Shown: in pieces, positions 1 through 52,994 of the stretch
How positions within the stretch are numbered: the stretch's first letter is position 1
Layout: every line of letters starts with the position of its first letter
DNA from: a virus
Taxonomy: Duplodnaviria; Caudoviricetes
IMG/VR virus record: IMGVR_UViG_3300034104_003611
Location: 1-52,994 of that record
DNA length: 52,994 nucleotides
Direction: 5' to 3' (one strand)
The notes under the pieces: generated by a model
Seen by the model: only the letters and a program-made list of their open reading frames with translations
Told to the model about the DNA's origin: nothing
The model's database searches: none
Position numbers and translations under genes: made by a program

Positions 1-13
1 GGTGTTTCGCAGG
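1..13 (+). repeat. 13-bp terminal direct repeat GGTGTTTCGCAGG, left copy (candidate cos end or circular overlap)
   Basis: Identical to 52982-52994; lies directly upstream of the operon carrying the GpA-type terminase. Confidence 0.85.
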
Positions 14-34
14 CACACGCAAACGCCAGCGTCT

Positions 35-127
35 CGCCTATCGGGTAGGTTTCCCGCGAATCCCCGCCTATTCGTTGGAAACCGGTGGATCGGCGCCCCT
101 ATAGTTTCCACTGAACGGTTTCCACTG
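35..127. promoter_or_regulatory. cosB-like / late promoter region with short repeats
   Basis: GTTTCCACTG at 104-113 and 118-127, GGTTTCC near 48, inverted GGAAACC at 77-83, CGCCTAT at 35 and 65, and a -10-like TATAGT at 100-105. Confidence 0.45.
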
Positions 128-138
128 GGTAATTCGGG

Positions 139-891
139 ATGAGATCTACCCTGACGCCCGCCATGGCGAAGCGCATTGAGCTATGGCCTGTCAGCAAACT
201 CGTCGCCTACGACAAGAACCCCCGCACCCACAGCCGTGCGCAGGTCTCCCAGCTGGCGGCGTCCATCGTGGAGTTCGGGTTCATCAACCCGATCCTGGTG
301 GACAGCGATGCCGGGATGATTGCGGGGCACGGCCGGTTGGCCGCGGCCAAGGAGCTGGGCCTGACGGAGGTGCCGGTGGTGGTCTTGGACCACCTCTCGC
401 AGGCGCAGAAGCGGGCCTACGTCATCGCGGACAACAAGCTGGCGGAGCTGGCCGGTTGGGACATGGACCTGCTGGCCGGCGAGATGGCCGACCTGCGCGA
501 CTTTGACTTTGACCTGGAGCTGACCGGCTTCTCGGATGCGGAGCTGGGCGGCCTGCTGGACGACCTGGACACCAACGTCCCCACGCCGGTGTTCAACGCT
601 CCGGTGCCCACCATGCCGGCCGCGGCTGGCGCCTCGCCCATCCCTTCAGCTGACACCACGGCGGCCGTTCCTCCCGCCGCTCCCGCCAGCTACGGGGATG
701 AGGATGAGGATGAGGAGGATGACACGTTCACCCTCCCGCCAGCCGCGACCCGCGTGGTGCAGCTGTTCATGAGCCTGGACCAGCACACTGAGTGGGGGCG
801 GATGGTTGACCGCCTGAACAAGCACTACGGCACCAGCAATCAGACCGACTGCGTGTTCGCGGCGCTGAAGGATGTGCTGGAGGGCCTGTGA
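139..891 (+). CDS. ParB/Srx N-terminal domain protein with acidic linker and small C-terminal domain; no methyltransferase domain
   Basis: ParBc motifs NPRTH, SIVEFGFINPILVD, IAGHGRLAAA and AYVIADNKL. Confidence 0.88.
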   Translation: MRSTLTPAMAKRIELWPVSKLVAYDKNPRTHSRAQVSQLAASIVEFGFINPILVDSDAGMIAGHGRLAAAKELGLTEVPVVVLDHLSQAQKRAYVIADNKLAELAGWDMDLLAGEMADLRDFDFDLELTGFSDAELGGLLDDLDTNVPTPVFNAPVPTMPAAAGASPIPSADTTAAVPPAAPASYGDEDEDEEDDTFTLPPAATRVVQLFMSLDQHTEWGRMVDRLNKHYGTSNQTDCVFAALKDVLEGL

Positions 892-1793
892 AGATCCTGA
901 CCGCTCCTGTTGAGCTCCCCGATGAGGAGGTGGACCACCTGGCTGGTCACTTCCTGACCCCGGAGCACTACGACCTGCTGGTGGAGGGCGAGAGCTGCCG
1001 GGTGAACAAGCCTGACGGCTCCCCCCTCCTGGTCTACGTCCGCAACGCCATCCCAACGGAGCTGGGCGCCGCGGCCTACGGGATCCTGACGGACACCATC
1101 GACTACGGCGACCAGGGGAGCCGCAACCGCGGCATCGCCGGTGGGTATGACGAGAACGGCAACCTGGCGGTCTACCGGCCCACGCTGAAGGGCACCCGGA
1201 GCAACACCCGCGTGTCAGCCAATCCGGTGCGCAGCGCGATCATCGGCTACTTCGACCGGTACACCCGGATGCCGTTCTGCCGGCTGTGCAACTACACACG
1301 GGACAACCCGGAGCAGTGGGCGGCGCTCCAGCCCTACATCCGGCACGTGGACCGGGTGTTCGCGGAGCACCTACCGGAGCAGTACGCCAGGCAGCGGGAC
1401 ATTGCGGACCGCACCAGCCAGGACTTCGTGATCAAGGACACCGCCTTCACCACCATCACGGTGAATGAGAGCTGGCGGACCGCCACGCACAAGGATGCCG
1501 GGGACTTCCGCGATGGCTTCGGCGTGATGGCGTGCCTCACGTCCGGATCATTCCAGGGCGGCCACCTGGTCATGCCGAAGTACCGGGTGGGCGTGGCGCC
1601 TACGTCCTGTGACGTGCTGCTGTTTGACGTTCACCAGTGGCACGGCAACACCGCGATGGTGGGCAACCCCAAGCGGTTCCGCCGGCTCACGCAGGTGTTC
1701 TACTACCGCGAGAAGATGATCCACTGCGGCACCGCGGTGGAGGAGCTGGACCGGGCCAAGAACCGCAAGCCTGGTGACCCGCTGTGGGATTGA
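888..1793 (+). CDS. TET/JBP-family 2-oxoglutarate/Fe(II) dioxygenase
   Basis: FTTITVN strand, HxD motif (THKDAGD), distal His (DVHQWHGNT) and 2OG-binding Arg (RLTQVFYYRE); GTGA overlap with the ParB-like gene. Confidence 0.88.
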   Translation: MKILTAPVELPDEEVDHLAGHFLTPEHYDLLVEGESCRVNKPDGSPLLVYVRNAIPTELGAAAYGILTDTIDYGDQGSRNRGIAGGYDENGNLAVYRPTLKGTRSNTRVSANPVRSAIIGYFDRYTRMPFCRLCNYTRDNPEQWAALQPYIRHVDRVFAEHLPEQYARQRDIADRTSQDFVIKDTAFTTITVNESWRTATHKDAGDFRDGFGVMACLTSGSFQGGHLVMPKYRVGVAPTSCDVLLFDVHQWHGNTAMVGNPKRFRRLTQVFYYREKMIHCGTAVEELDRAKNRKPGDPLWD

Positions 1794-2878
1794 CCGAGCA
1801 GCTATCGGCGTTGCGACCGGGCCTGGACTTCCGGCTGCCGGAGCTCCGCAGGGGAGTGTTCCACCAGTTCTACCAATTCCACCTGAAGTACCGGGCGCAC
1901 CCGGGTGCCGTCTACTACGTGCTCCCCTTCCTGGCGGAGCAGCAGGGCTGGACGGCAGAGGAGGCGCTGTGGTTCGCCTTCCTCAATGGCAACACCCAGC
2001 ACCCCGTAACCAGCTGGATCCTCCACCGAAGGTTCCCGGGCCTGGATGCGGCGGAGCCGATGCTGGAGTGGTACCGGGAGAACTACGCCCGGTTGTCCTT
2101 TGACACGGACCGCCGGCACCACAAGAAGATGCTGCCGCAAGCGGTGGAGGGCTACCGCAAGCTGCTGCGCGGCCGCTCCCAGGCGGAGCTGTGGGGCGAG
2201 GCTGCGCAACGTGGCTTCCGGGGCATCTGGGAGGTGGCGACCGCCATCCCGTCCTTTGGCCGGCTGTCAGCGTTCAGCTTCAGCGAGTACCTGCGCATCA
2301 GCGGCGTGGCGTTCGACTGCGACACGCTGTTCCTGGATGACCGCTCCGGCTCCAAGTCACACCGCAACGGCCTGTGCAAGGTGCTGGGGCGTGACGACCT
2401 GGACTGGCACTCCAGCAACCCGGGCTTTGACGGGACCTACTCCCGCGGCACGCTGAACTGGCTGGAGGTGGAGGGCGCAAGGATCCTGGAGGAGGCCCGG
2501 GAGCTGGCTGCCGGCACCGACTACGAGCGCGACGTGAGCTACTTCACGCTGGAGTCGGCGCTGTGCACCTACAAGTCCTGGCACCGGGTGAACCGGCGCT
2601 ACCCCAACGTCTACAACGACATGTTCCATGACCGGATTCGGGCCACTCAGGCCCGCTGGCCCGGGGAGGATTTGGGCGTGTTCTGGGATGCGCGGCGCCG
2701 CTACCTCCCGGATTACCTGCGGCTGGAGGACAACCCGCACGACCCCGGCTGCGTCCCGCTCAAGCAGAACCATTACCGGCTGACCGGCCAAGTAATCATG
2801 ATGGACCGCGACTACCCCGAGTTCCGCAACGACTTCAACGATGCGGTGCGTGACCGGGTCTTCCCCCGCTGGAGGTAG
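1784..2878 (+). CDS. Amino acid:DNA transferase (aGPT-Pplase2 family, HhH-glycosylase-like fold)
   Basis: Motifs FDTDRRH, FGRLSAFSFSEYL, GSKSHRNGL and FTLESALCTYKS..RRYPNVYND; context between TET and PLP/kinase genes. Confidence 0.8.
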   Translation: MGLTEQLSALRPGLDFRLPELRRGVFHQFYQFHLKYRAHPGAVYYVLPFLAEQQGWTAEEALWFAFLNGNTQHPVTSWILHRRFPGLDAAEPMLEWYRENYARLSFDTDRRHHKKMLPQAVEGYRKLLRGRSQAELWGEAAQRGFRGIWEVATAIPSFGRLSAFSFSEYLRISGVAFDCDTLFLDDRSGSKSHRNGLCKVLGRDDLDWHSSNPGFDGTYSRGTLNWLEVEGARILEEARELAAGTDYERDVSYFTLESALCTYKSWHRVNRRYPNVYNDMFHDRIRATQARWPGEDLGVFWDARRRYLPDYLRLEDNPHDPGCVPLKQNHYRLTGQVIMMDRDYPEFRNDFNDAVRDRVFPRWR

Positions 2879-2882
2879 ACCC

Positions 2883-3929
2883 ATGCGCACCATCTTCCCG
2901 GTTCAGTCCCTCGCCCGCTCCCAGGTGCGGTGGGAGGAGTACCTGAACAACCTCACGCCCATCACCCGCGTGAACGGCCGCGCATACAAGCGCGAGGATT
3001 TCTTCGCCCCGCTGGGCTACGGCGGCATCAACGGCTCCAAGCTCCGCCAGCTGGTCTACCTGGTGGACCGCTACCGGCGGCAAGGCGGCCGTGCCGGCCT
3101 GATCACTGGGGCCTCCGTGCTCAGCCCGCAGATCAGCATGGCCGCGCTGGTGGCTGCGCACTATGAGCTGCCGGCGCTGATGGTGCTGGGCGGCAGCAAG
3201 CCCGAAACGTCCATCAAGCACGAGAACGTCGCCATCGCTGCTCGAGCCGGCGCCACCTTCAGCTACGTGCCGGTGGGCTTCAACCCAACGCTCCAGCGGT
3301 CCGTGGGCAAGCTGGCCCAGGAGCCGCAGCTCAAGGACTATTTCCGCCTCCACTACGGCATCACCACCCCGGAAGCGGCCGCGGCCTGGGATGTGGCGGA
3401 GTTCCATGCGGTGGGCGCCCCACAGGCCCGGAACATCCCGGACGACATTGAGCACCTGATCATGCCGGCTGGCTCGTGCAACTCCTGCACGTCCGTCCTG
3501 CTGGGAATCGCCACGCACCGGCCCAAGGCGCTCCGCAAGGTGACGCTGCTGGGGATCGGTCCCACCCGGCTCCGGTGGATTGAGCAGCGGATGGAGAGCA
3601 TCTACCAGGCGTCCGGCGTGGACGTGATGGGCCTGTTCCGCCCCCGCTACCACCAGCACCCGGAGCTGGAGCCGGCGCACCGCGGTGATGCGCCCTACGA
3701 GCTGGAGCACTACGACCTCCACTCCACCGGCTACGTGAAGTACGCCGACAAGAAGCCGTTCAACCTGGATGGGATTGATTTCCACCCGACCTACGAGGGC
3801 AAGTGCCTCACCTACATGGCGGAGCACCGGGACACGTTCTCGGAGTGGTGGGAGGGCGACGGCAAGACCCTGTTCTGGATCGTCGGCTCCAAGCCCACCG
3901 CCGGCGCCATGACCCGCCACCTTCAGTGA
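2883..3929 (+). CDS. PLP-dependent enzyme (fold type II, ACC deaminase/D-Cys desulfhydrase-like), probable decarboxylase of an amino-acid-modified base
   Basis: YKREDFF..GGINGSKLRQ (Schiff-base Lys), PAGSCNS phosphate loop and FHPTYEGK; ATG at 2883 follows the upstream stop. Confidence 0.82.
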   Translation: MRTIFPVQSLARSQVRWEEYLNNLTPITRVNGRAYKREDFFAPLGYGGINGSKLRQLVYLVDRYRRQGGRAGLITGASVLSPQISMAALVAAHYELPALMVLGGSKPETSIKHENVAIAARAGATFSYVPVGFNPTLQRSVGKLAQEPQLKDYFRLHYGITTPEAAAAWDVAEFHAVGAPQARNIPDDIEHLIMPAGSCNSCTSVLLGIATHRPKALRKVTLLGIGPTRLRWIEQRMESIYQASGVDVMGLFRPRYHQHPELEPAHRGDAPYELEHYDLHSTGYVKYADKKPFNLDGIDFHPTYEGKCLTYMAEHRDTFSEWWEGDGKTLFWIVGSKPTAGAMTRHLQ

Positions 3930-3930
3930 G

Positions 3931-4464
3931 ATGGAGCTGCTGTACCTGATTGGCCCGCCGGGAGCGGGCAAGACCACGCTGCTGGAGAACGCATTGGCGG
4001 GCCGTGAGCGGATTGAGCGGGACAAGCCGCTGGCGCATGAGGAGCTCCCGGAGCTGAATGCCGCCATCCTTGGCCGCCGCCGGCCGCCATTCGGCGGAAC
4101 CGACACGCTCCCCATGAACATCGCCCGCACGGCCGAGAGCTGGATCCGCTCCCGTCCGTTCCAGCTGGTGATTGGTGAGGGTGACCGGCTGGCCTACCCC
4201 GCGTTCTTCACCGCTGCGGTGGAGGCCGGCTACCAGCTCCGGCTGATCTACCTGGGCCTCCCGTCCAAGACTGCTGCGGAGCGGCGTGCTGCCCGGGCGC
4301 ACCAGCACGGCACCGGGCTTCAGAATCCACAGTGGGTAACGGGCCGGGTGACCAAGGCGCAACGCATCGCGCAGGAGTGGGGAGCGGTGATGATCTACGC
4401 CTCGCAGTCGCCGGAAGCCATGACCCGTGAACTGCTGGACGCCGTACCGGCGCTGCGTGCATGA
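3931..4464 (+). CDS. P-loop kinase, probable 5-hydroxymethyl-pyrimidine DNA kinase
   Basis: Walker A GPPGAGKTT, then GGTDTLPM and IGEGDRL; context in a base-modification operon. Confidence 0.78.
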   Translation: MELLYLIGPPGAGKTTLLENALAGRERIERDKPLAHEELPELNAAILGRRRPPFGGTDTLPMNIARTAESWIRSRPFQLVIGEGDRLAYPAFFTAAVEAGYQLRLIYLGLPSKTAAERRAARAHQHGTGLQNPQWVTGRVTKAQRIAQEWGAVMIYASQSPEAMTRELLDAVPALRA

Positions 4465-5138
4465 GTGAACCCCTCAGCCTGCGCGGCTTTGCCGAATCCC
4501 TGGACCCGCCGGTGTCGCACACCGCGGTGCGCAAGGCGATTGAGGCCGGCCACATCCCGCCAGAGGCGCTGATCTACGACGACAAGGGCCACCGCAAGAT
4601 CGCGGACCCGGAGCTGGCCGCACGGTCGTGGAAAAAGAGCGTGCTGCCCTACGACCGCGGCCGCGGCAAGAAGCTGGGCCCGAAGCCGGATGAAGCGCAG
4701 CCACCGGAGCGGTTTGACTCCGCCGAGGAGCGTGCGCTGAGCCGGGAGCTCCTGGCGGAGGAGCGCGAGGAGCTGCCCGAGGAGCCCGAGGAGGTGGAGC
4801 AACGGGCGGCCGCCAGCGTCCCATCCACGCAGGATGCGGTGCCGCCCTACGCCCGCTCTCGCGCCATCCGGGAGGCATTCGCAGCTCAGATGGCCAAGCT
4901 GGAGTATCAGGAGCGTGCTGGGCAGCTGGTCTCCGCCAATGAGGTGAAGATCAAGTGGTTCGGTGAAGCCCGCCGGATCCGTGATGCACTGCTGAACGTC
5001 CCCGCACGCATCACCGACCAGCTGGCCGGATTGGTGGGCGAGGTCTCACCCGAGAAGCGGCACGCAATCCTGCTGCTGCTCCAACAGGAGCTCAATGTCG
5101 TATTGGAGGAACTGAGCGATGGTGCTGGCGAACGCTGA
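4461..5138 (+). CDS. terS: Terminase small subunit (Nu1-like)
   Basis: N-terminal HTH-like SLRGFA..VSHTAVRKAI; C-terminal AKLEYQERAGQLV..RDALLNVPAR; overlaps terL. Confidence 0.8.
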   Translation: MSEPLSLRGFAESLDPPVSHTAVRKAIEAGHIPPEALIYDDKGHRKIADPELAARSWKKSVLPYDRGRGKKLGPKPDEAQPPERFDSAEERALSRELLAEEREELPEEPEEVEQRAAASVPSTQDAVPPYARSRAIREAFAAQMAKLEYQERAGQLVSANEVKIKWFGEARRIRDALLNVPARITDQLAGLVGEVSPEKRHAILLLLQQELNVVLEELSDGAGER

Positions 5139-6990
5139 CCGTGATCTGGTCCCCAGCTTTCGCGCTGGGCTACGCCCCGACCCCATCTTGACCGTGAGCG
5201 AGTGGGCGGATGAGCACAGGATGCTCTCCCAGCGGGCATCGGCGGAGCCGGGCAAGTGGCGCACGGAGCGCACGCCGTTCCTGCGCGAGATCATGGACTG
5301 CCTCAGCACCACCTCCCCCGTTCAGCGGGTGGTGTTCATGGCGGGTGCGCAGGTCGGCAAGACGGAGTGCGGCAACAACTGGCTGGGTTACATCATTGAC
5401 GCCACGCCGGGACCGTCGTTGTGCGTGATGCCGACGGTGGACATCGCCAAGCGGTTCTCCAAGCAACGCCTCAACCCGCTGATTGAGGAGTGTCCGCGGC
5501 TCCGGGAGCGGGTGCGGCCGCCGCGTGAACGGGACAGCGGCAACAGCCTCTTCAGCAAGGAGTTCCCCGGTGGGATCTTGATGATCGGCGGGGCCAACTC
5601 CGGTGCGGGCCTCCGCTCCATGCCCATCAAGAACCTGTTCTGTGATGAGGTGGACGCCTACCCGGTGGACCTGGACGGTGAAGGTGACCCGGTGAGCCTG
5701 GCGGAACGCCGCACCACCACCTTCAGCCGGCGCAAGGTGTTCCTGTGTTCCACCCCAACCATCAAGGACTTCAGCCGGATTGAGGCGGAATACCTGGCCA
5801 GCGATCAGCGGCGGTACTTCGTCCCGTGCCCGGACTGCGGCCACATGCAGTGGCTCCAGTTCAGCAACATCCGCTGGCACGACGACGACCCCAAGACCGC
5901 GGCCTACTGCTGCGAGGAATGCGGCGTGCTCATCCCCGAGCGCCACAAGACGGAGATGCTGGCCAAGGGTGAATGGCGGGCTACCGCTCCGTCAGACGGC
6001 ACCACCGCCGGCTTCCACCTCAGCTCCCTCTACTCCCCCCTGGGCTGGAAGAGCTGGGCGGACATTGTGGCGGAGTTCATGAAGGCCAAGTCCGACGCGC
6101 CGATGCTCAAGACCTGGATCAACACCGTCTTGGGCGAGACCTTTGAGGACAACTACGCCAACAAGGTGGGCGCGTCCGCGCTGCTGGAGCGGGTGGAGCT
6201 GTACGAGCCACGGGTGGTGCCGGATGGCGGCCTGGCGCTCACTGTGGGCGTGGACGTTCAGGACAACCGCTTGGCCGTGTCCGTCTGGGCATGGGGCCGC
6301 GAGGAGGAGGGCTGGCTGGTTGATCACCAGGAGATCTACGGCGACCCCGGGCGGCCGGAGCTGTGGCGGCAGCTGGATGAGATCATCCTGGAACCATTCC
6401 CGCACGCCAGCGGCAGCACCCTGCTGCCGGATGTGGTCTGCATCGACTCCGGCGGTCACTTCACCCATGAGGTCTACCAGTACGCCCGGGAGCGGCGCAG
6501 CCAAGGCGTCATCCCCATCAAAGGCGCCAACACCCGCAACAAGCCGGTGATTGGCAAGCCCAGCAAGGTGGACGTGAATGCCCGCGGCCGGGTGTTGAAG
6601 GGTGGAGTGGAGCTCTACACCGTGGGCACGGACACCGCGAAGGTGACGCTGTTCGGCCGGCTGAAGCACAACGAGCCCGGCGCCGGCTACCTCCACTTCC
6701 ACAACGCCTGCACGGAGGAGTATTTCGCGCAGCTGACCTCTGAGAAGCAGCAGGTGCGGTTCGTGCGCGGCTTCGCCATCCGGGAGTTCGTCAAGAAGCC
6801 GAGCGAGCGGAACGAGGCACTGGACACGCTGGTCTACGCCTATGCCGGATTGAATCGCATGTACCAGCTAAGAGATCGCAGAACTATCTGGGATCAGCTG
6901 GAAAAACGCATAAAAGCGCCAGTAGAGAAGCGGCGGCCGTCATCGCTAAGATCAGGAGGAGCTCAGCGCAGCTTCGTCCGCAACTGGTGA
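5119..6990 (+). CDS. terL: Terminase large subunit, lambda GpA family
   Basis: TVSEWAD, AQVGKTE, DEVDAYP, STPT, CPDC/CEEC zinc motif, GVDVQ, IDSGG and RNEALD. Confidence 0.96.
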   Translation: MVLANADRDLVPSFRAGLRPDPILTVSEWADEHRMLSQRASAEPGKWRTERTPFLREIMDCLSTTSPVQRVVFMAGAQVGKTECGNNWLGYIIDATPGPSLCVMPTVDIAKRFSKQRLNPLIEECPRLRERVRPPRERDSGNSLFSKEFPGGILMIGGANSGAGLRSMPIKNLFCDEVDAYPVDLDGEGDPVSLAERRTTTFSRRKVFLCSTPTIKDFSRIEAEYLASDQRRYFVPCPDCGHMQWLQFSNIRWHDDDPKTAAYCCEECGVLIPERHKTEMLAKGEWRATAPSDGTTAGFHLSSLYSPLGWKSWADIVAEFMKAKSDAPMLKTWINTVLGETFEDNYANKVGASALLERVELYEPRVVPDGGLALTVGVDVQDNRLAVSVWAWGREEEGWLVDHQEIYGDPGRPELWRQLDEIILEPFPHASGSTLLPDVVCIDSGGHFTHEVYQYARERRSQGVIPIKGANTRNKPVIGKPSKVDVNARGRVLKGGVELYTVGTDTAKVTLFGRLKHNEPGAGYLHFHNACTEEYFAQLTSEKQQVRFVRGFAIREFVKKPSERNEALDTLVYAYAGLNRMYQLRDRRTIWDQLEKRIKAPVEKRRPSSLRSGGAQRSFVRNW

Positions 6991-6993
6991 GCC

Positions 6994-7578
6994 GTGAAGA
7001 TCCCATCGCAACTACGGGCCGGCGACACCATCAAGTGGCTGGACCCGCCCATGCAGGATGCGCTGGGCAATCCCATCAGCAACACCACGCACGCGCTGAC
7101 CTACTACCTCCGCTTCAACGCCGCGTCTGAAGGCGTGACGGTGGTGGCCACCACCAGCGGCAGTGATTGGCTGTCCACCATCCCCGCCAACACCTCCGCC
7201 GGGATGGATGCTGGCACCTGGTACTTCCAGGCGCAGGCCACCGCACTGATTGGCGCCGAGAAGGTCACACTGGGCGCCGGGCAGGTGACGGTGCTGCCCA
7301 GCCTGTCCTACGCCGGCTCCCCCGCGGCGTTTGATGGCCGCTCCCAGGCGCAGAAGGACCTGGAGACCGTTGAGGCTGCTATCCGCTCCCTCAGCTCCGG
7401 CGGTGGCGTTCAGGAGTACCGCATCGGCACCCGGTCCCTGAAACGCTACGACCTGGGTGAGCTCCTCGTGCTCCGCGACAGACTGAAGGCACAAGTGGTC
7501 CGGGAGCAGAAGGCGAACATGATCGCCAACGGCCTGGGCAACCCCCACTCCGTCTTCATTCGCTTCGGTAACCGCTGA
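6994..7578 (+). CDS. Head completion/joining protein (gpW-like C-terminus with an extra N-terminal beta domain)
   Basis: Lies between terL and portal; QEYRIGTRSLKRYDLGEL. Confidence 0.65.
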   Translation: MKIPSQLRAGDTIKWLDPPMQDALGNPISNTTHALTYYLRFNAASEGVTVVATTSGSDWLSTIPANTSAGMDAGTWYFQAQATALIGAEKVTLGAGQVTVLPSLSYAGSPAAFDGRSQAQKDLETVEAAIRSLSSGGGVQEYRIGTRSLKRYDLGELLVLRDRLKAQVVREQKANMIANGLGNPHSVFIRFGNR

Positions 7579-9083
7579 TGGGCCTCCGCACTCGGTTGAT
7601 GCAAGCCTTCGGCTTCGGGCCGGCGAAGGAACCGCGCAAGCCCCGCCGGCGCATGTACCAAGGCGCCCGGATCACCCGGCTGACGAGTGATTGGTTCACG
7701 GCGCAAACCTCCGCCGACGCCGAGATCCGCACCAGCATCCGCCTGCTGCGTGACCGCTCCCGCCAGCTGGTCCGGGACAACCCCTACGCACGCCAGGCCA
7801 AGCGCACCACCCAGATCAACGTGGTGGGCCACGGCATCAAGATGCAGGCGCAGGTGCCGATGCTGCGCGGCAAGAAGCTGGATCAGCGGCTCAATGGCGT
7901 GATTGAAACGTCCTGGGAGCGGTGGTGCCGCTCAGATTCCTGCGACGTGGCCGGCGTCAACAGCTTCAACTCCTTTGAAAACCTGATTGCCGGTGCTCTG
8001 CCCGAGTCCGGCGAGATCATCTTCAGGATCGTCCGGCGCAAGTTCGGCCGCAGCAAGGTCCCCATCGCCCTGGAGGTGATTGAGAGCGACCTGCTGGACG
8101 AGGAATACGCCGGCCCAACCTCCGGCAAGGGCCGTGAGTGGCGCATGGGCGTGGAGATTGATGAATGGGGCCGTCCGCTCCGCTATGCCTTCCGCACCCG
8201 TCACCCCGGTGACTACTGGTTCCAAGGCGCTGACCAGGAGAACGTCCGGCACGAGTTCCTCCCTGCCGCGGACGTGATCCACCTGTTCCTTCGTGAGCGC
8301 CCCGGGCAAAACCGCGGTGTGCCCTGGTTCGCGTCGGTGATGGATGACGCGCACCAGCTCCAGGGCTACGAGCAGGCTGCCGTGGTCCGTGCCCGGGCCG
8401 CCAGCTCCCTGATGGGCTTCATCACCACCCCTGAAGGTGAGCTCCAGGCGGATGACGTGGAGGATGGTGAGCGCATCCAGGAGTTTGAGCCTGGCGTGTT
8501 CCGCTACCTGGACCCGGGCCAGCAAATCACCATCCCTAACCTCTCGGCTCCGGACAGCCAGTACGAAATGTTCATCCGCGCCAAGGCCCGCCGGTTCGCC
8601 GCGGGCTTCGGCTGCTCCTACGAGACCCTCAGCCGCGACTTCAGCGAAACCAACTACTCCAGCTCCCGGCTGAGCCTGCTGGAGGACCGTGATCACTGGC
8701 GCGTGATCCAGGGCTACCTGATTGAGAACTTCCACCAGCGGGTGTTTGAGGCGTGGCTGGATGCTGCGGTGCTCTCCGGCGCCCTGGAGCTCCCCGACTA
8801 CGAGCTCCGTCCCGAGCGGTACGACCGTCCCCGCTGGCAGGCCCGCGGCTGGAGCTGGGTGGACCCGCTCAAGGAGGTCCAAGCCTTCCGGGAGGCGGAG
8901 GCGGCCGGCTACCTCACCAAGTCACAGATCGTCGCGCAGCTTGGCGCGGACCTGGACGACAACCTCCAGCAGCTGGCGCAAGAGCAACAGCTGGCCCTGG
9001 ACCTCGGCCTCATGCTGGATGCGGACAAGAAGCCCGCACCGCCGGCTCCCGCTCCCGCCCGCACGGCTGAACCGGAGGCCTGA
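7578..9083 (+). CDS. Portal protein, lambda family
   Basis: LRDRSRQLVRDNPYA, RPGQNRGVPWF, NYSSSRL and WVDPLKE. Confidence 0.95.
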   Translation: MGLRTRLMQAFGFGPAKEPRKPRRRMYQGARITRLTSDWFTAQTSADAEIRTSIRLLRDRSRQLVRDNPYARQAKRTTQINVVGHGIKMQAQVPMLRGKKLDQRLNGVIETSWERWCRSDSCDVAGVNSFNSFENLIAGALPESGEIIFRIVRRKFGRSKVPIALEVIESDLLDEEYAGPTSGKGREWRMGVEIDEWGRPLRYAFRTRHPGDYWFQGADQENVRHEFLPAADVIHLFLRERPGQNRGVPWFASVMDDAHQLQGYEQAAVVRARAASSLMGFITTPEGELQADDVEDGERIQEFEPGVFRYLDPGQQITIPNLSAPDSQYEMFIRAKARRFAAGFGCSYETLSRDFSETNYSSSRLSLLEDRDHWRVIQGYLIENFHQRVFEAWLDAAVLSGALELPDYELRPERYDRPRWQARGWSWVDPLKEVQAFREAEAAGYLTKSQIVAQLGADLDDNLQQLAQEQQLALDLGLMLDADKKPAPPAPAPARTAEPEA

Positions 9084-11698
9084 TGAGCACTGAAATGAAC
9101 CTGATGCCCACCGAGGGGATGCGCGAGGAGGCGCTGCGCTACCGCGCATGGAAGGCGGAAGGCCGGAGCGGTGGAACTGAGGTCGCCGCACGCCGCGCCT
9201 CGCAGATCCTGTCTGGTGACGAGCTGAGCCCAGACACGGTGATCACCATGGCGGCCTGGTTCGCCCGGCACGAGAGCGACAAGAAGGCTGAAGGCTTCCG
9301 GCCTGGAGAGAAGGGCTACCCCTCCCCCGGCCGTGTCGCATGGGCCGCATGGGGTGGAGATCCCGGTCAAACATGGGCCACTGCGAAGGCTCAAACCATC
9401 AAAGATGCCGAAGATAGACTTATGACAACGTCCGATACGCCGACCGTGGAGAACGAAAAGGCCCCGGGCCAGCAGCTGAAGACTGGCGACTACGTGAGTT
9501 GGGGCAGCTCCGGCGGCACCGCTCGCGGCCGGATTGAGAAGATCATCCGTGAAGGCACCCTCAACGTGCCCGACTCCAGCTTTGAGATTGAGGCGACGGA
9601 GGATGACCCCGCCGCACTGATCCGCGTGTTCCAAGAAGGCGCAGACGGATGGGAGCCGAGCGACCGCCTGGTGGGCCACAAGCTATCCACCCTCTCCAAG
9701 ATTGAACCGCTCCGCGCTGCCGAGGAGGCCGAGGAGCCTGGCGAGGAAGATGACGAGGACGAGGAGCTAGAGGTGGAGGTGATCATCCCCTCCGGCCGCT
9801 CCCTGCCGCTCAAGGAGCTCCAGAAGCGCGGCAAAGGTGGCAACCTCATCCAGCGCCGCGAAGCCAGCGTCCAGATCCGCGCCGGTGAAGGCGATGAGAT
9901 GGAGTTCAGCTTCAGCTCTGAGCAGCCGGTGGAGCGGTACTTCGGCACCGAGATCCTCTCCCACGAGGCTGGTTCCGCCAACCTGGAGCGGCTCAACAAC
10001 GGCGCTCCCTTCCTGTGGAACCACGACCGCGATGCCGTGATCGGCGTGGTCCAGAGCGCACGGATGGGCGGTGACCGCCGTGGCTATTCCAAGGTCAAGT
10101 GGTCCCGCAACGCCATGGCGCAAGAGAAGCGCCAAGACGTGGCAGACGGCATCCTGCGCAACGTCTCCTTTGCCTACTCAATCGACGAAGTAGAGGAGCG
10201 TGGCGAGAACATCATCGTCACCAAATGGACTCCGCTGGAAGTGAGCCTGGTCTCAATTCCTGCGGATGCCAGCGTGGGCCTGGGACGTGCTCTCCAGGAA
10301 GGCGATAGCATGAGCGAAGAGGTCCCTGCTGTTCCGGCAGAGATCGCCACCGATTCCGACGCTCCCGTTGAGGGCGTGGCGGAAGAACCAGCGGCCACAG
10401 CCGCATCACCCACCCCTCAACCTAACTCTGAGGTTCCCATGGAGAACACCCCTGACGTGGAGGTGATCCGGTCGAAGGCCGCTGAGGCCGAGCGCACCCG
10501 TATCGCCCAGATTTCCGCCCTTGGCGAGAAGTTCGGCATGGCCGATCTGGCTCGTGAACTGATCGACGGCGGCAAAGATCTCACCGAAGCCCGCACTGCG
10601 ATCCTGGAGAAAATGGAAGCCCGTTCCAGCAAGTCCGCTGCTCACCGCATTGCTGAGCCCAAGGGTTCTGAAGTCGGCCTGAACGACAAGGAGACCCGCA
10701 GCTACAGCTTCCTGCGCGCCCTGAACTACCTCGCCAACCCCGGCGACAAGCAGGCCGCTGAAGCCGCTGCCTTTGAGCGTGAGGTGTCTGACGCCGCCGC
10801 CAAGGCATACGGCAAGCCCGCCAACGGCCTGATGGTGCCCAATGAGGTGCTCCGTCGTGACCTGACCGCCGGCACCAACTCCGCCGGTGGTTTCACCGTC
10901 GCCACCGACCTGCTGGCCGGCAGCTTCATTGAGCTGCTGCGCAACAAGCTGGCCCTGGCTCAGGTGGGCGCCACCATCCTCTCCGGCCTCCAGGGCAACA
11001 TTGCTATTCCCAAGCAGTCGGCAGCCTCAACTGCCTACTGGGTTGGTGAGGGCAACGCTCCCACCGAGAGCCAGCAGACCCTGGAGCAGGTCACCATGTC
11101 GCCCAAGACCGTGGGCGCCTACGTGGACTACTCCCGCCGCCTGCTGCTCCAGAGCTCCATCGACGTGGAGCAGATGGTGCGCAACGACCTCGCCCGCGTG
11201 ATCGCGCTCGAGATCGACCGTGCCGGCCTCTACGGCTCCGGTTCCTCCAACCAGCCCAAGGGCCTGATCAACCAGACCGGCATCAACACCGTCTCCCTGA
11301 CCAACTACGGCACCTTTGCTGAGCTGATCAGCATGGAGACCGAGGTGGCCAAGGACAACGCCGACGCCGGCTCGCTGTTCTACCTGATGAACGCTGCTGC
11401 CCGCGGCGCTCTGAAGTCCACTCCTAAGTCCGCCTCCGCCGTGGCCGCTGGCTTCGTGTACGAGGACGACGAGGTGAACGGCTACCCCGTGATCGTGTCC
11501 AACCAGCTCAGCCTGGATGACATCATCTTCGGTGCCTTTGATCAGATGATCATGGGCATGTGGAGCGGCCTGGACCTCACCCTGGACCCCTACGCTGGCG
11601 CCACCTCCGGCACCGTGCGCATCGTGGCTCTCCAGGACGTGGACTTCGCCATCAAGCAGGCTGGCGCCTTCTGCTACGGCACCGGCGCTCTCTCCTGA
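9083..11698 (+). CDS. Fused head polyprotein: N-terminal accessory domains, HK97-type prohead protease and major capsid protein
   Basis: Protease motifs FSFSSE, FLWNHD, VSFAY and EVSLVSIPADASVG; capsid motifs AYWVGEG, TMSPKTVGAYVDYSRRLLLQS and VNGYPVIVSNQ. Confidence 0.92.
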   Translation: MSTEMNLMPTEGMREEALRYRAWKAEGRSGGTEVAARRASQILSGDELSPDTVITMAAWFARHESDKKAEGFRPGEKGYPSPGRVAWAAWGGDPGQTWATAKAQTIKDAEDRLMTTSDTPTVENEKAPGQQLKTGDYVSWGSSGGTARGRIEKIIREGTLNVPDSSFEIEATEDDPAALIRVFQEGADGWEPSDRLVGHKLSTLSKIEPLRAAEEAEEPGEEDDEDEELEVEVIIPSGRSLPLKELQKRGKGGNLIQRREASVQIRAGEGDEMEFSFSSEQPVERYFGTEILSHEAGSANLERLNNGAPFLWNHDRDAVIGVVQSARMGGDRRGYSKVKWSRNAMAQEKRQDVADGILRNVSFAYSIDEVEERGENIIVTKWTPLEVSLVSIPADASVGLGRALQEGDSMSEEVPAVPAEIATDSDAPVEGVAEEPAATAASPTPQPNSEVPMENTPDVEVIRSKAAEAERTRIAQISALGEKFGMADLARELIDGGKDLTEARTAILEKMEARSSKSAAHRIAEPKGSEVGLNDKETRSYSFLRALNYLANPGDKQAAEAAAFEREVSDAAAKAYGKPANGLMVPNEVLRRDLTAGTNSAGGFTVATDLLAGSFIELLRNKLALAQVGATILSGLQGNIAIPKQSAASTAYWVGEGNAPTESQQTLEQVTMSPKTVGAYVDYSRRLLLQSSIDVEQMVRNDLARVIALEIDRAGLYGSGSSNQPKGLINQTGINTVSLTNYGTFAELISMETEVAKDNADAGSLFYLMNAAARGALKSTPKSASAVAAGFVYEDDEVNGYPVIVSNQLSLDDIIFGAFDQMIMGMWSGLDLTLDPYAGATSGTVRIVALQDVDFAIKQAGAFCYGTGALS

Positions 11699-11700
11699 GC

Positions 11701-12711
11701 ATGATCGCTGGGCTGATCAAGGCCAAGCGGAACTACAACCCCTCCCTGGTTTCGGCCGGGGAGGGCTTTCTGTTGGCGTACCGCTCTGAGGCCAAGGACT
11801 TCACCGTCAGCGAGATCGTGCTGGCGGAGCTGGACCGGGACATGAACGTGCTGAGCAATCAGCGGCTCAAGGTCCCCGGAGTGGAGGCGCATCATTCCCT
11901 GGAGGATCCCCGGCTGTTCTGGCACCGGGACCGGCTTCACATCGCCTTCAGCATCGCCCACTACGGCACCAAGCACGGCTGGCGGTGCGTGCAGGCTTAC
12001 GGCCGGCTGAGCAAGCGCAAGAACTGGACCCTGCCCAAGGTTCACGTCCCGTCCTATGGCGTGAATGACTGGAGCTCCAAGGAGAAAAACTGGACGTTTT
12101 TTGAGGCCGAAGGTGCGCTCCGCTGCATCTACGACATGGGCGCCTCCGGCTGGCGCGTCCTGGAGCTGGATGAAGACCGCGTGGTGGAGGAGTGGCGCCA
12201 CAACCCGGTGGCCTGGGCTCACGGCCGCATGTCCGGCGGCTCCCCCGCGGTGCCGTGGCGAGATCACCTCCTGACGGCCTTCCACTCCTGGGAGAAGCAC
12301 CAAGCCCGCAGCCGGGTGTATCACATGGCTTTCCTGGCCCTTGACGCCACCGCTCCGCACGCTCCCCGTCTCATCTCCCCGGGACCCGTCCTGACCGCTC
12401 AGGCGGAATGGGGCCGCCCCGCTGGTGAGAAGTGGGCACCGCTGTGTGTCTTCCCCGGTGGCCTGGAGGTTCAGGATGACCGTGCGCTGGTGGCCTACGG
12501 CCAGAATGACGTGAGCCTGGCGGTGGATGAGTTCACCATCCCCGAGCTGGTCCCGGTCCGCTCCCGTCCCACGCACCGCAATGAGATCCTGGTGCGCCTC
12601 ACCGGCTCCGTCCTGGTGAAGGGTCAGCCCGCGTATCCTGGGACTGAGGTGGCGCTGCTCCGCGCAGATGCTGCTGACCTGATTGCCCGGGGCAAGGCGG
12701 TGGCGCTGTGA
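11701..12711 (+). CDS. Five-bladed beta-propeller glycosidase/glycosyltransferase-like protein (GH130/GH43-clan-like) with a C-terminal small phage structural domain
   Basis: NYNPSL, LEDPRLF, EKNWTFF, GGSP, CVFPGGL and YGQND; last ~45 aa end in AADLIARGKAV. Confidence 0.6.
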   Translation: MIAGLIKAKRNYNPSLVSAGEGFLLAYRSEAKDFTVSEIVLAELDRDMNVLSNQRLKVPGVEAHHSLEDPRLFWHRDRLHIAFSIAHYGTKHGWRCVQAYGRLSKRKNWTLPKVHVPSYGVNDWSSKEKNWTFFEAEGALRCIYDMGASGWRVLELDEDRVVEEWRHNPVAWAHGRMSGGSPAVPWRDHLLTAFHSWEKHQARSRVYHMAFLALDATAPHAPRLISPGPVLTAQAEWGRPAGEKWAPLCVFPGGLEVQDDRALVAYGQNDVSLAVDEFTIPELVPVRSRPTHRNEILVRLTGSVLVKGQPAYPGTEVALLRADAADLIARGKAVAL

Positions 12712-33894: not shown

Positions 33895-34173
33895 TTAGCG
33901 AGCCGTCCCGTTCAATCGGTCCGCTACCAGCTGGGCGTACCCGGCGATGTCATGCCAGGAATCGGCGTAGTCCGGGTCACCGTTGATGATCCGGCCGATC
34001 TTGTGGCAGATCATCTCCAGGGCCTCCTGCTGGTCGTCCGCCAGGGTGCGGTTGCGGATCTCCAGCTGGTCACGGATCACCCCTTTCAGCTCCTGCGTCA
34101 CCAGAGCGTGGCCGATGAAGGTGCCGTAGCGGCTCCCCCGCTCCTCCAGCGTGGCGGTGAGGTCAGTCGTCAT
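33895..34173 (-). CDS. Conserved phage protein (DUF6378-like)
   Basis: TLEERGSRYG..EALEMICHKIGRIINGD..DSWHDIAGYAQL. Confidence 0.75.
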   Translation of the reverse strand: MTTDLTATLEERGSRYGTFIGHALVTQELKGVIRDQLEIRNRTLADDQQEALEMICHKIGRIINGDPDYADSWHDIAGYAQLVADRLNGTAR

Positions 34174-51529: not shown

Positions 51530-51890
51530 CGTCCTATCTCCCTCCGCCCCGGTGCCACGCCGGGGCTTTTTTTTGCCCGCCGCCGTCCCAACGTCCCAAC
51601 GTCCTATCTGTTTCGCAGACTTTCCCCGTCCTATCTCCACGGCCGCTTGGGGTAGATAGGACGGCCAAAAAGCATTGCAGTGACTGAGGTTTGCGGCATC
51701 CGTCCTATCTCCGTCCGTCCTATCTGCTGCCTCAGACTCTCCGGGTATTTCTCCCCCTCCTCCCCCTCTCCCCTTTATTACTACTTCTATAGAAATAGAT
51801 AGGACGATAGGACGGACAGCTGAGAGCCCTTCTGCCGCAGTGGCCCTCGCCGTCCCAACCCCCCTCACCAGATAGGACGGAGATAGGACG
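51530..51890. repeat. Iteron array CGTCCTATCT, probable replication origin
   Basis: Forward copies at 51530, 51600, 51627, 51701 and 51716; inverted copies at 51654, 51797, 51870 and 51881 plus a variant at 51805; AT-rich core at about 51774-51800. Confidence 0.82.
51546..51574 (+). terminator. Rho-independent terminator
   Basis: GCCCCGG-7 nt-CCGGGGC followed by T8. Confidence 0.88.
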
Positions 51891-51907: not shown

Positions 51908-52063
51908 ATGGACTTCCGCCGCGGCCAACCAGTCCGGGTGTTCATGGGTGCTGGCTGGGCCAAGGGCACCTACATCCGCCACAACGGCTCCGCCTTCCTG
52001 GTTGAGCTGCCCAACCGCGGCACCATCGCCGTCTACGACCCCCGGAACATCCGCCCCGGTTGA
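51908..52063 (+). CDS. Small SH3/Tudor-like beta protein (51 aa, not in the ORF track)
   Basis: MDFRRGQPVRVFMGAGWAKGTY..VYDPRNIR. Confidence 0.5.
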   Translation: MDFRRGQPVRVFMGAGWAKGTYIRHNGSAFLVELPNRGTIAVYDPRNIRPG

Positions 52064-52134
52064 CCGGCTACGCTGGCAGTGGTCTTTTGGGTCCACCCCA
52101 CCTCTGGTCCGGTGGGGCTTCACTCTTCGGCGCC

Positions 52135-52845
52135 ATGGCCACTCGCTCCGTCACCTCGGACATTGACCGGATGAGCGAGCGGCTCCGCGTCCTCACCGAC
52201 ACCCAGGTGCGCTACGCCGTCGCCCGGGCCATGACCCAGGCCGTCATCGCCACCCGTGACCAGCTCAAGGCTGAGCTGCCCAGCTACATCGACCGCCCCA
52301 CCCGCTGGACCATCAACGCCGCCTACGCACGCTTCGCCCGCCCCACTGAGCTCGTCGCAGAGGTGGGCCTGCGCACTGATGGCGCCAACTCCGCCGGCCG
52401 CTACCTCCAGCCCCTCATCCGTGGCCTCCGCCCACAGGTGAAGCCCGTAGACCGCTCCGCTGCCGCAGCAGCCAAGGTCGCCCCCAACGCCTCCCTCATC
52501 CCCACCAAAGGCGCTGGCCTGATCAACCAGTACGGCAACGTCAGCCTGTCCAACTACGCCAAGATCATCGGCGGTGCCCGTGACAAGCAGGGCGGCTACT
52601 TCATCGCCCCCGTCAAGCGTGGCTCGTCCACCATGGCCGTCTTCCAGCGCACCACCGGCTTCATCAGCCGCACCTCCACCCTGGAGTCCTCCGTGCGCCG
52701 CCTGTTCACCATTGACCCCACCCCCGCGCTCCGCCAGAAGCGCCTCCCCCTGGAGCAGCTCCTGGACAAGGGCTTCAGCCGCCACTGGCCTGGCGCACTC
52801 CGCTCCAGCCTCACCGCTGAGCTCCAGCGGGCCGGCTTCAGGTAG
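52135..52845 (+). CDS. Basic tail-completion/neck-like protein (lambda Z-like)
   Basis: QVRYAVARAMT..IDRPTRWT, RYLQP and NQYGN; sits just before cos. Confidence 0.55.
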   Translation: MATRSVTSDIDRMSERLRVLTDTQVRYAVARAMTQAVIATRDQLKAELPSYIDRPTRWTINAAYARFARPTELVAEVGLRTDGANSAGRYLQPLIRGLRPQVKPVDRSAAAAAKVAPNASLIPTKGAGLINQYGNVSLSNYAKIIGGARDKQGGYFIAPVKRGSSTMAVFQRTTGFISRTSTLESSVRRLFTIDPTPALRQKRLPLEQLLDKGFSRHWPGALRSSLTAELQRAGFR

Positions 52846-52851
52846 CCAGCC

Positions 52852-52966
52852 CTAGTCCCTCTAGGCGCCCCCAGCCCCGCTAGAGCTCCGCCACTAGGCC
52901 CTCGCCCCTAGTCCCCCTAGGGCTCTCCGCCCCCTCTAGGCCCCCTAGGGCTGCGGGTCCCTCTAG
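52852..52966. repeat. CTAG array (9 copies in 115 bp)
   Basis: CTAG at 52852, 52861, 52880, 52894, 52908, 52917, 52936, 52945 and 52963. Confidence 0.85.
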
Positions 52967-52981
52967 GGGCCTCGGCCTGCA

Positions 52982-52994
52982 GGTGTTTCGCAGG
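52982..52994 (+). repeat. 13-bp terminal direct repeat, right copy
   Basis: Identical to 1-13. Confidence 0.85.

Follow-up and report, generated by a model that had tools for sequence, protein, structure and literature searches.

The locus described here raises the question of why genes for DNA-modifying enzymes stand between the end of a phage chromosome and its terminase genes, and whether modification is thereby tied to packaging. The window, that is, the whole stretch of DNA that was analyzed, is the complete 52,994-bp genome of a temperate, lambda-like phage from lake water. An initial annotation had placed modification genes between cos and terS/terL, and this placement was confirmed by the gene families, the gene order and the 13-nt genome ends. 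The relevant features are as follows.

1..13, no strand: left terminal repeat, 13 nt, GGTGTTTCGCAGG, identical to 52982-52994
14..138, + strand: non-coding stretch from the candidate cos to the first gene, with repeats and a promoter-like site
76..105, + strand: promoter-like site TGGAAA-18-TATAGT (consensus match only)
139..891, + strand: ParB-like protein (PF02195, 33.9 bits, residues 14-89 of 250; phrog_620, phrog_15396)
888..1793, + strand: TET/JBP-family Fe(II)/2-oxoglutarate dioxygenase (PF12851, 78.9 bits, cut-off 34.9)
1784..2878, + strand: amino-acid:DNA transferase (ADDT/AADT, formerly aGPT-Pplase2; PF18724, 61.5 bits, cut-off 26.2; phrog_3271)
2883..3929, alternative start 2841, + strand: fold-type-II PLP-dependent enzyme (phrog_3650; by fold)
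3931..4464, + strand: P-loop nucleotide kinase 3, 5-hydroxymethyl-dU DNA kinase type (Ploopntkinase3; PF18751, 107.6 bits, cut-off 27)
4461..5138, + strand: terminase small subunit, terS (phrog_57, E 1e-16; no Pfam match), start overlapping the kinase stop
5119..6990, + strand: terminase large subunit, terL, lambda gpA type (PF05876, 330.7 bits; PF20454, 323.9 bits)
6994..7578, + strand: head-tail joining protein
7578..9083, + strand: lambda-type portal
9083..11698, + strand: protease/major capsid fusion
11740..11765, + strand: first strong terminator-like hairpin, 3' of the capsid gene (11 pairs, 8 G-C)
51546..51566, + strand: strong, T8-tailed terminator-like hairpin past the primase/helicase gene (9 pairs, 8 G-C)
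52060..52845, + strand: last gene before the candidate cos, 261 aa (phrog_1924 'minor tail protein', E 4e-28)
52846..52981, no strand: non-coding repeat array rich in CTAG (CYCTAG-N5-CTAGGG pairs), immediately to the left of the candidate cos
52982..52994, no strand: right terminal repeat, 13 nt, second copy of GGTGTTTCGCAGG

The 13-mer is a candidate, and likely, cohesive-end (cos) sequence. The earlier assignment of a cos to the genome end was supported by its presence at both ends and by a single contiguous copy in L006, a relative with 80-95% protein identity to the phage, in which the 13-mer is read through once (9111-9123) and is flanked by homologues of the right and left ends of the phage genome. 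The GpA_ATPase and GpA_nuclease domains of terL and the repeat at both ends would fit lambda-like cos packaging. To the left of cos, nine of the 15 CTAG tetranucleotides in the genome fall within 52852-52963, in an array comprising repeat families D1, D2, D4 and I5, and L006 carries a similar array; this could be a putative binding site for terS, a regulator or ParB. To the right, inverted GGTTTCC/GGAAACC copies lie at 48-83 and two copies of GTTTCCACTG at 104-113 and 118-127. The product of the last gene before cos gave no Pfam match, and PF06763 is present in 11-19% of the members of matching Atlas clusters; a role as a gpZ-like virion protein in tail completion is possible, but no more than a lead. 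An integrase gene at 30669-32375 indicates that the phage is temperate, in agreement with its earlier treatment as a prophage-forming phage.

Predicted activities of the cassette proteins

In the ParB-like protein, an acidic linker joins a ParB/Srx domain at the N terminus to a small domain at the C terminus; no helix-turn-helix was detected, as judged from a missing Pfam match only. Its gene is adjacent to that of the TET/JBP protein and overlaps it by 4 nt. By analogy to the ParB-dioxygenase pairs described in parts of PMC13229309, it is likely to be the activator of the dioxygenase.

Residues H201, D203, H252 and R266 of the TET/JBP protein were invariant in an 11-row alignment; we take the first three to be the iron-binding HxD...H triad and R266 to be the 2-oxoglutarate arginine. 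As judged from its relatives, the protein is likely to be a thymine dioxygenase, which would convert T to 5-hydroxymethyluracil (5hmU) in DNA. Searches of the whole genome returned no PF00145 match, as expected of a C5-methyltransferase (5mC writer), and no PF00303 match, as expected of a ThyA-type dUMP hydroxymethylase; ThyX is the sole thymidylate synthase. This leaves the action of TET on thymine as the one evident origin of 5hmU.

Inspection of the kinase sequence revealed a Walker A motif, GPPGAGKT. The PLP enzyme scored 23.8 bits against PF00291 (PALP), below the cut-off of 35, and was assigned by fold. Its AlphaFold model (pLDDT 93.8) gave 4d8t_A as best Foldseek match (E 9e-12, TM 0.62-0.65, probability 1.0), the top matches being D-cysteine desulfhydrase and ACC deaminase, and the modeled fold is of this type. 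Residue K53 was invariant in 20 rows and is presumably the Schiff-base lysine.

With substrate and products taken from characterized relatives, the following minimal pathway can be proposed. The dioxygenase, activated by the adjacent ParB-like protein, would turn thymine in double-stranded DNA into 5hmU; the P-loop kinase would phosphorylate the hydroxyl of this base; the transferase would swap the phosphate for an amino acid; and the PLP enzyme would, probably, tailor the appended amino acid.

Known systems with a similar gene order

The cassette is of a known kind, in which ParB-dependent thymine oxidation is followed by thymidine hypermodification, and the idea of a tie between modification and packaging is already in print; the phage adds another example. 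As related in parts of PMC4738411 and PMC8256090, the “ParB-terminase large subunit locus” is an idea of Iyer, Zhang and Aravind (2013), who predicted that modifying genes between the ParB gene and terL act as part of packaging. In the phage, too, the ParB gene, the modification genes and terL lie together and point the same way; the examples cited in those parts are methyltransferases and TET/JBP genes, and the position at cos makes the phage a specific case. Replacement of the hydroxymethylase by TET beside thymidine-hypermodification genes has also been noted (in part of PMC8989533).

The same gene order with 4-bp overlaps is described for Gordonia phage CaiB in part of PMC9302106. CaiB, AnarQue (Gordonia DR cluster) and the cluster B mycobacteriophages (e.g. 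Zemanar) share with the phage the order ParB-like protein, TET/JBP, transferase, P-loop kinase and terminase, with the modification-to-terminase string likewise at the start of the genome map. The phage transferase shares 49% identity with the gp3 proteins of cluster B mycobacteriophages such as Zemanar, and the phage kinase is 36% identical to that of Zemanar. By contrast with the phage, these viruses have actinobacterial hosts, a terL of the Terminase_6N rather than the gpA type and a cassette lacking the PLP gene; cluster B1 genomes are described in part of PMC9584339 as circularly permuted, not cos, whereas the phage has candidate cos ends. No family-A polymerase was found in the phage genome, nor did the ORFs of 300 aa or more include any other polymerase, consistent with the premise of the initial annotation that the phage relies on the host enzyme. 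The premise is not general, however, as Zemanar and AnarQue, which share the gene order, do encode PolA.

In some of these actinobacteriophage records the kinase is labeled 'terminase small subunit'.

ParB-dependent thymine dioxygenases have been linked to P-loop kinases and AADTs (O'Toole et al. 2026, in part of PMC13229309). Their 5mYOX176/ParB176 class shares with the phage an adjacent ParB-like gene, a TET/JBP dioxygenase, a P-loop kinase and an AADT, and its ParB likewise carries the ParB domain at the N terminus, with no helix-turn-helix detected; that pair is characterized, whereas the phage pair is known here from its genes. Terminases occur in 19.2% of all 5mYOX contigs, a figure given in that part of the paper without an analysis of position.

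Kinases and transferases of these two families, together with a PLP enzyme, also make up the cassettes of phages ViI and M6 and their relatives (Lee et al. 2018, 2021), and the transferase-PLP-kinase order of the phage matches that of Glutamicibacter phage Montesquieu. In the ViI/M6 type, 5hmdU is made before replication by a dUMP hydroxymethylase, the phages have their own polymerase and the cassette lies with replication genes; the phage, by contrast, is a TET-fed variant with its cassette ahead of the terminase.

Predicted expression of the cassette

From base 139 to 11698, the ParB-like, TET/JBP, transferase, PLP, kinase, terS, terL, portal and capsid genes form an uninterrupted string with gaps of at most 3 nt, or at most +4 nt should ATG 2883 be the PLP start. 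The junctions are −4 (GTGA) for ParB-like/TET, −10 for TET/transferase, −38 with start 2841 or +4 with ATG 2883 (which is preceded by GGAGG) for transferase/PLP, +1 for PLP/kinase, −4 (ATGA, 4461-4464) for kinase/terS, −20 for terS/terL and +3, −1 and −1 for the three after terL. The overlaps initially reported on either side of terS are thus real. Tight spacing is nonetheless common in this genome: 33 of 50 same-strand adjacent pairs, drawn from our own GC3-filtered ORF list, are separated by no more than 5 nt, and nine are exact 4-nt overlaps. Overlap or abutment is therefore the rule, and the ATGA at kinase/terS is not special in itself. The terS start is preceded by no Shine-Dalgarno-like sequence, which fits translational coupling to the kinase.

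A scan of positions 1-12000 found six terminator-like sites versus 6.0 ± 2.4 in shuffles. The only strong one is the hairpin at 11740-11765, past the capsid gene, and no strong one lies within 139-11698. Upstream of cos, the hairpin at 51546-51566 is the likely end of the early rightward operon. The hexamers and spacing of the promoter-like site recur in L006 at 9186-9215 as the sole promoter-like match in 2.7 kb (0.3 expected); promoter and terminator calls alike are consensus matches only.

Because the cassette occupies the stretch from cos to terS/terL and leads the string of packaging and head genes, it is most likely transcribed with the terminase genes, a reading consistent with the gap-free arrangement of 139-11698, the lack of a strong terminator inside it and the strong terminator upstream. 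Transcription would proceed from the promoter-like site at 76-105, by read-through across cos, or both. We consider it probable that bases 139-4464 constitute a post-replicative thymidine-hypermodification cassette that is co-expressed with the packaging genes and acts on concatemers before packaging. The enzymes would be made only in lytic growth, alongside the packaging machinery, and would act on finished concatemers shortly before these are packaged. Co-transcription, late timing and the selective reason are what we infer, and we read the tie to packaging as reflecting timing and co-expression rather than complex formation.

The kinase and transferase of hydroxymethylase-type phages likewise work on replicated DNA, although their genes lie among early ones, so that post-replicative chemistry alone needs no late position. 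Moreover, as reported in part of PMC13229309, ParB-dioxygenase pairs provided with neither a phage site nor a terminase oxidize 25-35% of E. coli chromosomal thymines, and lambda DNA in vitro; there is thus no built-in limit to DNA that is being packaged.

Terminase linkage among relatives

Synteny was surveyed at 106 distinct IMG/VR loci sampled by TET (one duplicate contig dropped, other near-duplicates kept), 79 of which were judgeable and 27 not, and at 80 loci sampled by the transferase. The loci are not independent of one another, and “none seen” refers to a tblastn panel and to PHROG checks restricted to ORFs of 280 aa or more (TET sample) or 330 aa or more (transferase sample). The survey, which the initial annotation had named as a check, revealed strong linkage of TET cassettes to terminase genes, with a minority kept apart. 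In 67 of the 79 judgeable TET loci, terL followed TET on the same strand at a distance of 0.56-5.3 kb (median 2.7 kb). In four it was divergent, 2.3-2.5 kb upstream of TET, and these loci therefore show adjacency without co-transcription; in the remaining eight, adjacency was absent despite room. Isolates Zemanar, Kharcho and AnarQue have the same cassette order ahead of the terminase. Among transferase-sampled loci, the TET type gave 25 linked, 15 with no terL seen and 16 not judgeable, compared with 0 linked, six with none seen, one with terL 6 kb away and two not judgeable for the hydroxymethylase type (0/7 judgeable). The proposed tie of modification to packaging is partly supported, in that the cassette shares a string with terS, terL and the head genes and this synteny is conserved; the ordinary ATGA, the limited reach of the host-polymerase argument, the oxidation of E. 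coli chromosomal DNA by ParB-dioxygenase pairs and the unlinked minority weaken the claim.

The linked terL genes span four Pfam families (GpA, Terminase_6N, Terminase_3 and TerL_ATPase), and the family switches at least six times on a 70-row TET tree. This bears on a proposal that we judge decidedly improbable, in which the ParB-like protein would bring the enzymes to cos or the terminase and modification would take place within the packaging reaction. Such coupling is the prediction in print (PMC4738411, PMC8256090, each in part) and would suit a ParB gene that comes first after cos, two repeat arrays that flank cos and conserved terminase synteny. Nevertheless, members of one TET/ParB clade have terL partners from four unrelated families and small subunits of at least three kinds (phrog_57, Terminase_4 and DUF5681), and partners so varied disfavor a conserved protein interface. 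The oxidation of E. coli and lambda DNA described above, by pairs whose ParBs have no evident DNA-binding domain (part of PMC13229309), also argues against it, as does, weakly, the failure to find the kinase fused to a longer protein.

A long shot is a version in which the ParB-like activator loads at the arrays flanking cos (nine CTAG on the left, GTTTCC repeats on the right) and spreads clamp-like along the concatemer, confining oxidation in cis to packaging-bound phage DNA. If true, loading at cos would account for the position of the cassette and also for the way in which a temperate phage that lacks a polymerase of its own distinguishes its DNA from that of the host.

Other locations of the cassette were next to a DNA polymerase gene (L040), following tail genes (L084), alongside DnaB and a methyltransferase in the ParB-less relatives L107, L113 and L114, amid the SbcCD and endonuclease V genes of large phages (the L159 group) and, in Arthrobacter phage Altadena, at a distance from the terminase. 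Such unlinked relatives, and the hydroxymethylase-type phages, make comparable bases without terminase linkage, which renders it very unlikely that the modification serves packaging rather than defense by changing DNA charge, stiffness or cos recognition, its genes belonging to the packaging module by function. Effects on packaging were raised as a possibility by the authors of PMC8256090 and PMC13229309 (each in part), and the CTAG-rich array by cos holds thymines in NTA context, the second choice, after NTG, in the tentative preference of one tested ParB-dependent enzyme (part of PMC13229309).

Finally, the boundary before terS may be an insertion hot spot that tolerates accessory cassettes and into which a ParB-led unit moves with no functional tie; we regard this as unlikely. 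The position is fixed while the downstream chemistry varies (transferase and kinase, glycosyltransferases, amidotransferase and acetyltransferase, or amidoligase), methyltransferases fill the same ParB-terminase locus in other phages (part of PMC4738411), terL is divergent in four loci and a sizeable minority is unlinked. Repeated insertion would also yield the terL family switches on the TET tree. On the other hand, 67 of 79 same-strand positions directly upstream far exceed the number expected from chance placement in a genome of 30-70 kb, by estimate rather than a computed null, and the closely related transferase, PLP and kinase cassettes with a dUMP hydroxymethylase are not found there (0/7). 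In the hydroxymethylase-type Montesquieu and GG32 the transferase instead adjoins the DNA polymerase. The position of the cassette thus follows the TET/ParB step and not any DNA-modification cargo.

The phage genome and its modification cassette

The window corresponds to a complete virus record in IMG/VR (52,994 bp, completeness rating 100%, "linear", 65% G+C) and is the genome of a temperate lambda-like siphovirus, with a gpA-type terL, a lambda-family portal, a protease/capsid fusion, a tape-measure protein, a J-like tail protein, an endolysin and a tyrosine integrase (30669-32375). Its replication genes comprise a Prim-Pol/VapE primase-helicase, an SSB, a Sak4-like protein and an exonuclease. 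A genome-wide search revealed no family-A DNA polymerase, and every ORF of at least 300 aa outside the operon carried some assignment other than polymerase. Given that the closest terL genes in cultured-phage records (48-52% identity) belong to Ralstonia, Wolbachia and Acidithiobacillus elements, the host is probably a proteobacterium. Phage DNA was present in lake-water metagenomes, no RNA run was found among the 20 runs listed with phage DNA, and the best result of a search for near-identical phages was a 61-nt match.

Family searches recovered, between positions 139 and 6990, all of the genes that the initial annotation had named.

Genes of the cassette and the adjoining terminase genes
139-891, ParB-like gene
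888-1793, TET/JBP dioxygenase
1784-2878, amino-acid:DNA transferase (Pfam score above cut-off)
2883-3929, PLP-type enzyme (alternative start at 2841)
3931-4464, P-loop kinase 3 (Pfam score above cut-off)
4461-5138, terS
5119-6990, terL

The dioxygenase retains the HxD...H and arginine positions in an alignment. Neither a C5-methyltransferase nor a ThyA-type hydroxymethylase was found in the window genome, so thymine is the likely substrate and the TET enzyme the only evident source of 5hmU; a role on 5mC was rejected because the genome lacks a C5-methyltransferase. Phage TET/JBP enzymes encoded beside a ParB homologue have been shown to be thymine dioxygenases whose activity on dsDNA requires that ParB (O'Toole et al. 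2026, PMC13229309), and replacement of the hydroxymethylase by TET in some contigs was noted by Lee et al. 2021 (PMC8989533). The phage also carries a ThyX thymidylate synthase (34163-34798, minus strand; PF02511, 164 bits) even though hypermodification begins from thymine in DNA; the dTTP supply may be secured in this way.

The PLP protein scored 23.8 bits in Pfam, below the cut-off of 35. Its structural model (pLDDT 93.8) is similar to those of D-cysteine desulfhydrase and ACC deaminase; the alignment contains an invariant lysine. The order transferase-PLP-kinase is identical to that in the Glutamicibacter phage Montesquieu. PDB sequence searches gave no match with the transferase or the PLP protein and only a designed P-loop protein (E 0.0085) with the kinase; NCBIfam gave no match above its cut-offs. 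Longer, fused forms of the kinase were not found in a search whose negative result counts as weak evidence.

The kinase has homologues in 403 phage records, with Mycobacterium phages accounting for 376; among the matches listed, most are located right at the beginning of the genome map. In records of cluster B mycobacteriophages, the homologue is labeled "terminase small subunit" in some cases and "adenylate kinase" in others. Zemanar gp4 (L002, the Zemanar locus, 2875-3465) is such a P-loop DNA kinase homologue and lies immediately upstream of terL, being 36% identical to the kinase of the window and unrelated to its terS. The kinase of the window itself also matches phrog_800, "terminase small subunit". 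The point is relevant to annotation, since some public phage records give the P-loop kinase the name "terminase small subunit".

Junctions between the cassette and the terminase genes

From the ParB gene onward, the junctions measure -4, -10, -38 (or +4 with the later PLP start), +1, -4 and -20, and those following terL measure +3, -1 and -1, up to the end of the capsid gene at 11698. The ATGA that joins the kinase stop to the terS start was found at 4461-4464, and the overlap of terS with terL was confirmed as the -20 junction. Terminator-like matches within the string were weak and occurred at the frequency seen in shuffled sequence (6 versus 6.0 ± 2.4); the unit is, as first described, free of gaps, and it contains no strong terminator. 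The first strong hairpin in the terminator scan lies at 11740-11765. Shine-Dalgarno-like sequences precede the TET gene, the PLP gene when read from 2883, and also terL; none precedes the terS start. Across the genome, 33 of 50 same-strand neighboring ORF pairs lie no more than 5 nt apart and 9 of the 50 overlap by exactly 4 nt; the kinase/terS overlap is thus ordinary in this genome.

Linkage to terminase in relatives and its possible basis

Similar arrangements are already in print. The same gene order before terminase, with 4-bp overlaps, is described for the Gordonia phage CaiB (PMC9302106), a five-gene version has been noted for the Rhodococcus phage Tonitrus, and the prediction that modification accompanies packaging is repeated by Burke et al. 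(PMC8256090). Literature searches, the scope of which did not include Iyer et al. 2013, returned no experiment that addressed when TET cassettes are expressed or whether they are coupled to terminase. The additions made here are an example from a lambda-like phage with probable cos ends and a PLP step, synteny counts and the contrast with hydroxymethylase-type cassettes, in which 5hmdU is made by a dUMP hydroxymethylase.

One co-directional block of ParB, TET, kinase and terminase is present in the cluster B mycobacteriophage Zemanar, the Gordonia phage AnarQue and the Arthrobacter phage Kharcho; Zemanar (a transferase homologue) and AnarQue (an unannotated gene) have an additional gene between TET and kinase. 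The TET gene of Pelagibacter phage HTVC112P lies 2.4 kb upstream of terL, and the cassette of Altadena is not adjacent to terminase. A wider survey was based on 106 distinct IMG/VR loci sampled by TET and drawn in part from the top 80 among at least 534 relatives. In these, terL was detected with a tblastn panel, and for 15 doubtful loci 32 ORFs were also compared with PHROGs. A same-strand terL followed TET by 0.56-5.3 kb at 67 of these loci; terL was divergent and 2.3-2.5 kb upstream at 4, and not adjacent despite sufficient room at 8. The remaining 27 were not judgeable, although for two of them (L107 and L113), in which DnaB helicase and methyltransferase genes come immediately downstream, we lean towards an unlinked state. 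The homologous operons are therefore mostly terminase-linked, an outcome in favor of the initial annotation.

A second set of 80 loci was sampled by the transferase and assessed with the tblastn panel. Of 93 large ORFs at these loci, 81 were also compared with PHROGs, the other 12 being from near-duplicate loci. Among its TET-type cassettes, 25 were linked, 15 had no terL in view within at least 4 kb downstream and 16 were not judgeable. None of the hydroxymethylase-type cassettes was linked (six with none seen, one with terL 6 kb away and two not judgeable). Where neither marker was in view, four were linked, eight had none seen, two had terL more than 3 kb away and one was not judgeable. Because near-duplicate loci were kept in the tallies, these counts do not represent independent events. 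Unlinked TET cassettes belong mostly to large phages that themselves encode functions in DNA metabolism, and in Montesquieu and GG32, both of the hydroxymethylase type, the transferase lies beside the phage's own polymerase.

Outside virus records, a single-protein search of representative bacterial and archaeal genomes for the TET clade gave no match, and a small-alignment search gave only five loci (L116-L120), all on MAG contigs, versus at least 534 in IMG/VR; terL lay downstream in three of the five. Two further arrangements were observed. At one IMG/VR locus (L125, 2602-13041), terL lies inside the cassette, in the order TET, kinase, unknown ORF, terL, transferase, PLP enzyme and portal. 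On a 306-kb jumbo-phage contig (L171, 7202-16833), TET, transferase and kinase directly precede a terL-like gene, which is followed by tail-sheath and portal genes.

The old qualitative prediction of a ParB-terminase large subunit locus thus now has numbers: TET-fed cassettes lie directly before terminase in most relatives, whereas hydroxymethylase-fed versions sit instead with replication genes. That difference is the main difficulty for a neutral insertion hot spot before terminase, at which the hydroxymethylase-fed versions are not found, and we regard such a hot spot as unlikely. The linked terL genes span four Pfam families, and the family changes at least 6 times on the TET tree (70 rows, quick method) versus 20.1 times in shuffles. 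One TET/ParB clade is paired with varied terminase families, which makes a conserved ParB-terS interface unlikely and a physical link between the modification enzymes and terminase distinctly improbable.

The reading that we favor, with some reserve, is that the tie is one of timing, the cassette being produced with terminase in the late lytic phase. Because the cassette heads the string of packaging and head genes, its products would most likely be made together with terminase. ParB-dependent dioxygenases are reported to oxidize any dsDNA, including the E. coli chromosome in vivo and lambda DNA in vitro (PMC13229309), and such an enzyme by itself would be unable to distinguish phage from host DNA. 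Confinement to the late lytic phase would leave lysogens and replicating templates unmodified and would allow host repair less time to attack oxidized thymines. The earlier proposal that modification is tied to packaging stands in part: the gene string shared with terminase and the conserved synteny speak for it, whereas the overlap is ordinary here and the argument from reliance on a host polymerase is not general, since Zemanar and AnarQue, which have the ParB-TET-kinase-terminase block, encode PolA. O'Toole et al. 2026 (PMC13229309) call it "a mystery" why phages modify thymine after replication. One concrete, testable answer is suggested by where the cassette lies, namely that a non-discriminating DNA oxidase would thereby be restricted to the packaging phase, and the window, from a lambda-like, temperate phage with probable cos ends and without a polymerase, provides a clean example.

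Genome ends and the surroundings of cos

The two ends of the record carry an identical 13 bases, GGTGTTTCGCAGG. In L006, an IMG/VR relative whose proteins are 77-95% identical to those of the window, the 13-mer occurs as a single copy between homologues of the right and left ends of the window and is perfectly conserved, whereas its flanks are only 77-80% identical. This pattern fits copied cohesive ends and, together with the gpA terminase, supports the cos site named in the initial annotation. None of the Logan contigs listed spans the 13-mer in L006 coordinates. One X1 and one X3 contig start within a few bases of the 13-mer, but these carry no weight here, since contigs cannot show the ends of molecules and the record may itself stem from sample X1. 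RNA folding of the L006 junction gave no structure signal (z -0.47).

Features flanking cos
51546-51566, strong terminator-like hairpin after the primase gene
52060-52845, last gene before cos (261 aa)
52066-52084, weak terminator-like site (6 pairs, 3 G-C)
52846-52981, non-coding CTAG array left of cos, in CYCTAG-N5-CTAGGG pairs (L006: 8960-9110)
76-105, promoter-like site TGGAAA-18-TATAGT between cos and the ParB gene (consensus match)

CTAG occurs 15 times in the genome versus ∼171 expected from base composition, and 9 of the 15 sites fall within the 130 non-coding bases directly left of the cos 13-mer; L006 carries an array of the same kind. To the right of cos, GTTTCCACTG is present twice together with inverted copies. 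The putative promoter overlaps GTTTCC/GGAAAC repeats (48-127), and its hexamers are kept in L006 while the spacer has diverged. Between the hairpin at 51546-51566 and the ParB gene, neither the window nor L006 showed a terminator-like site other than the weak one at 52066-52084. For the last gene before cos, the matches were phrog_1924, "minor tail protein", and clusters in the Atlas with Minor_tail_Z in a minority of members, so that it may, as a lead only, encode a tail-completion protein. Should this gene encode a virion component, cos would have late genes on both sides.
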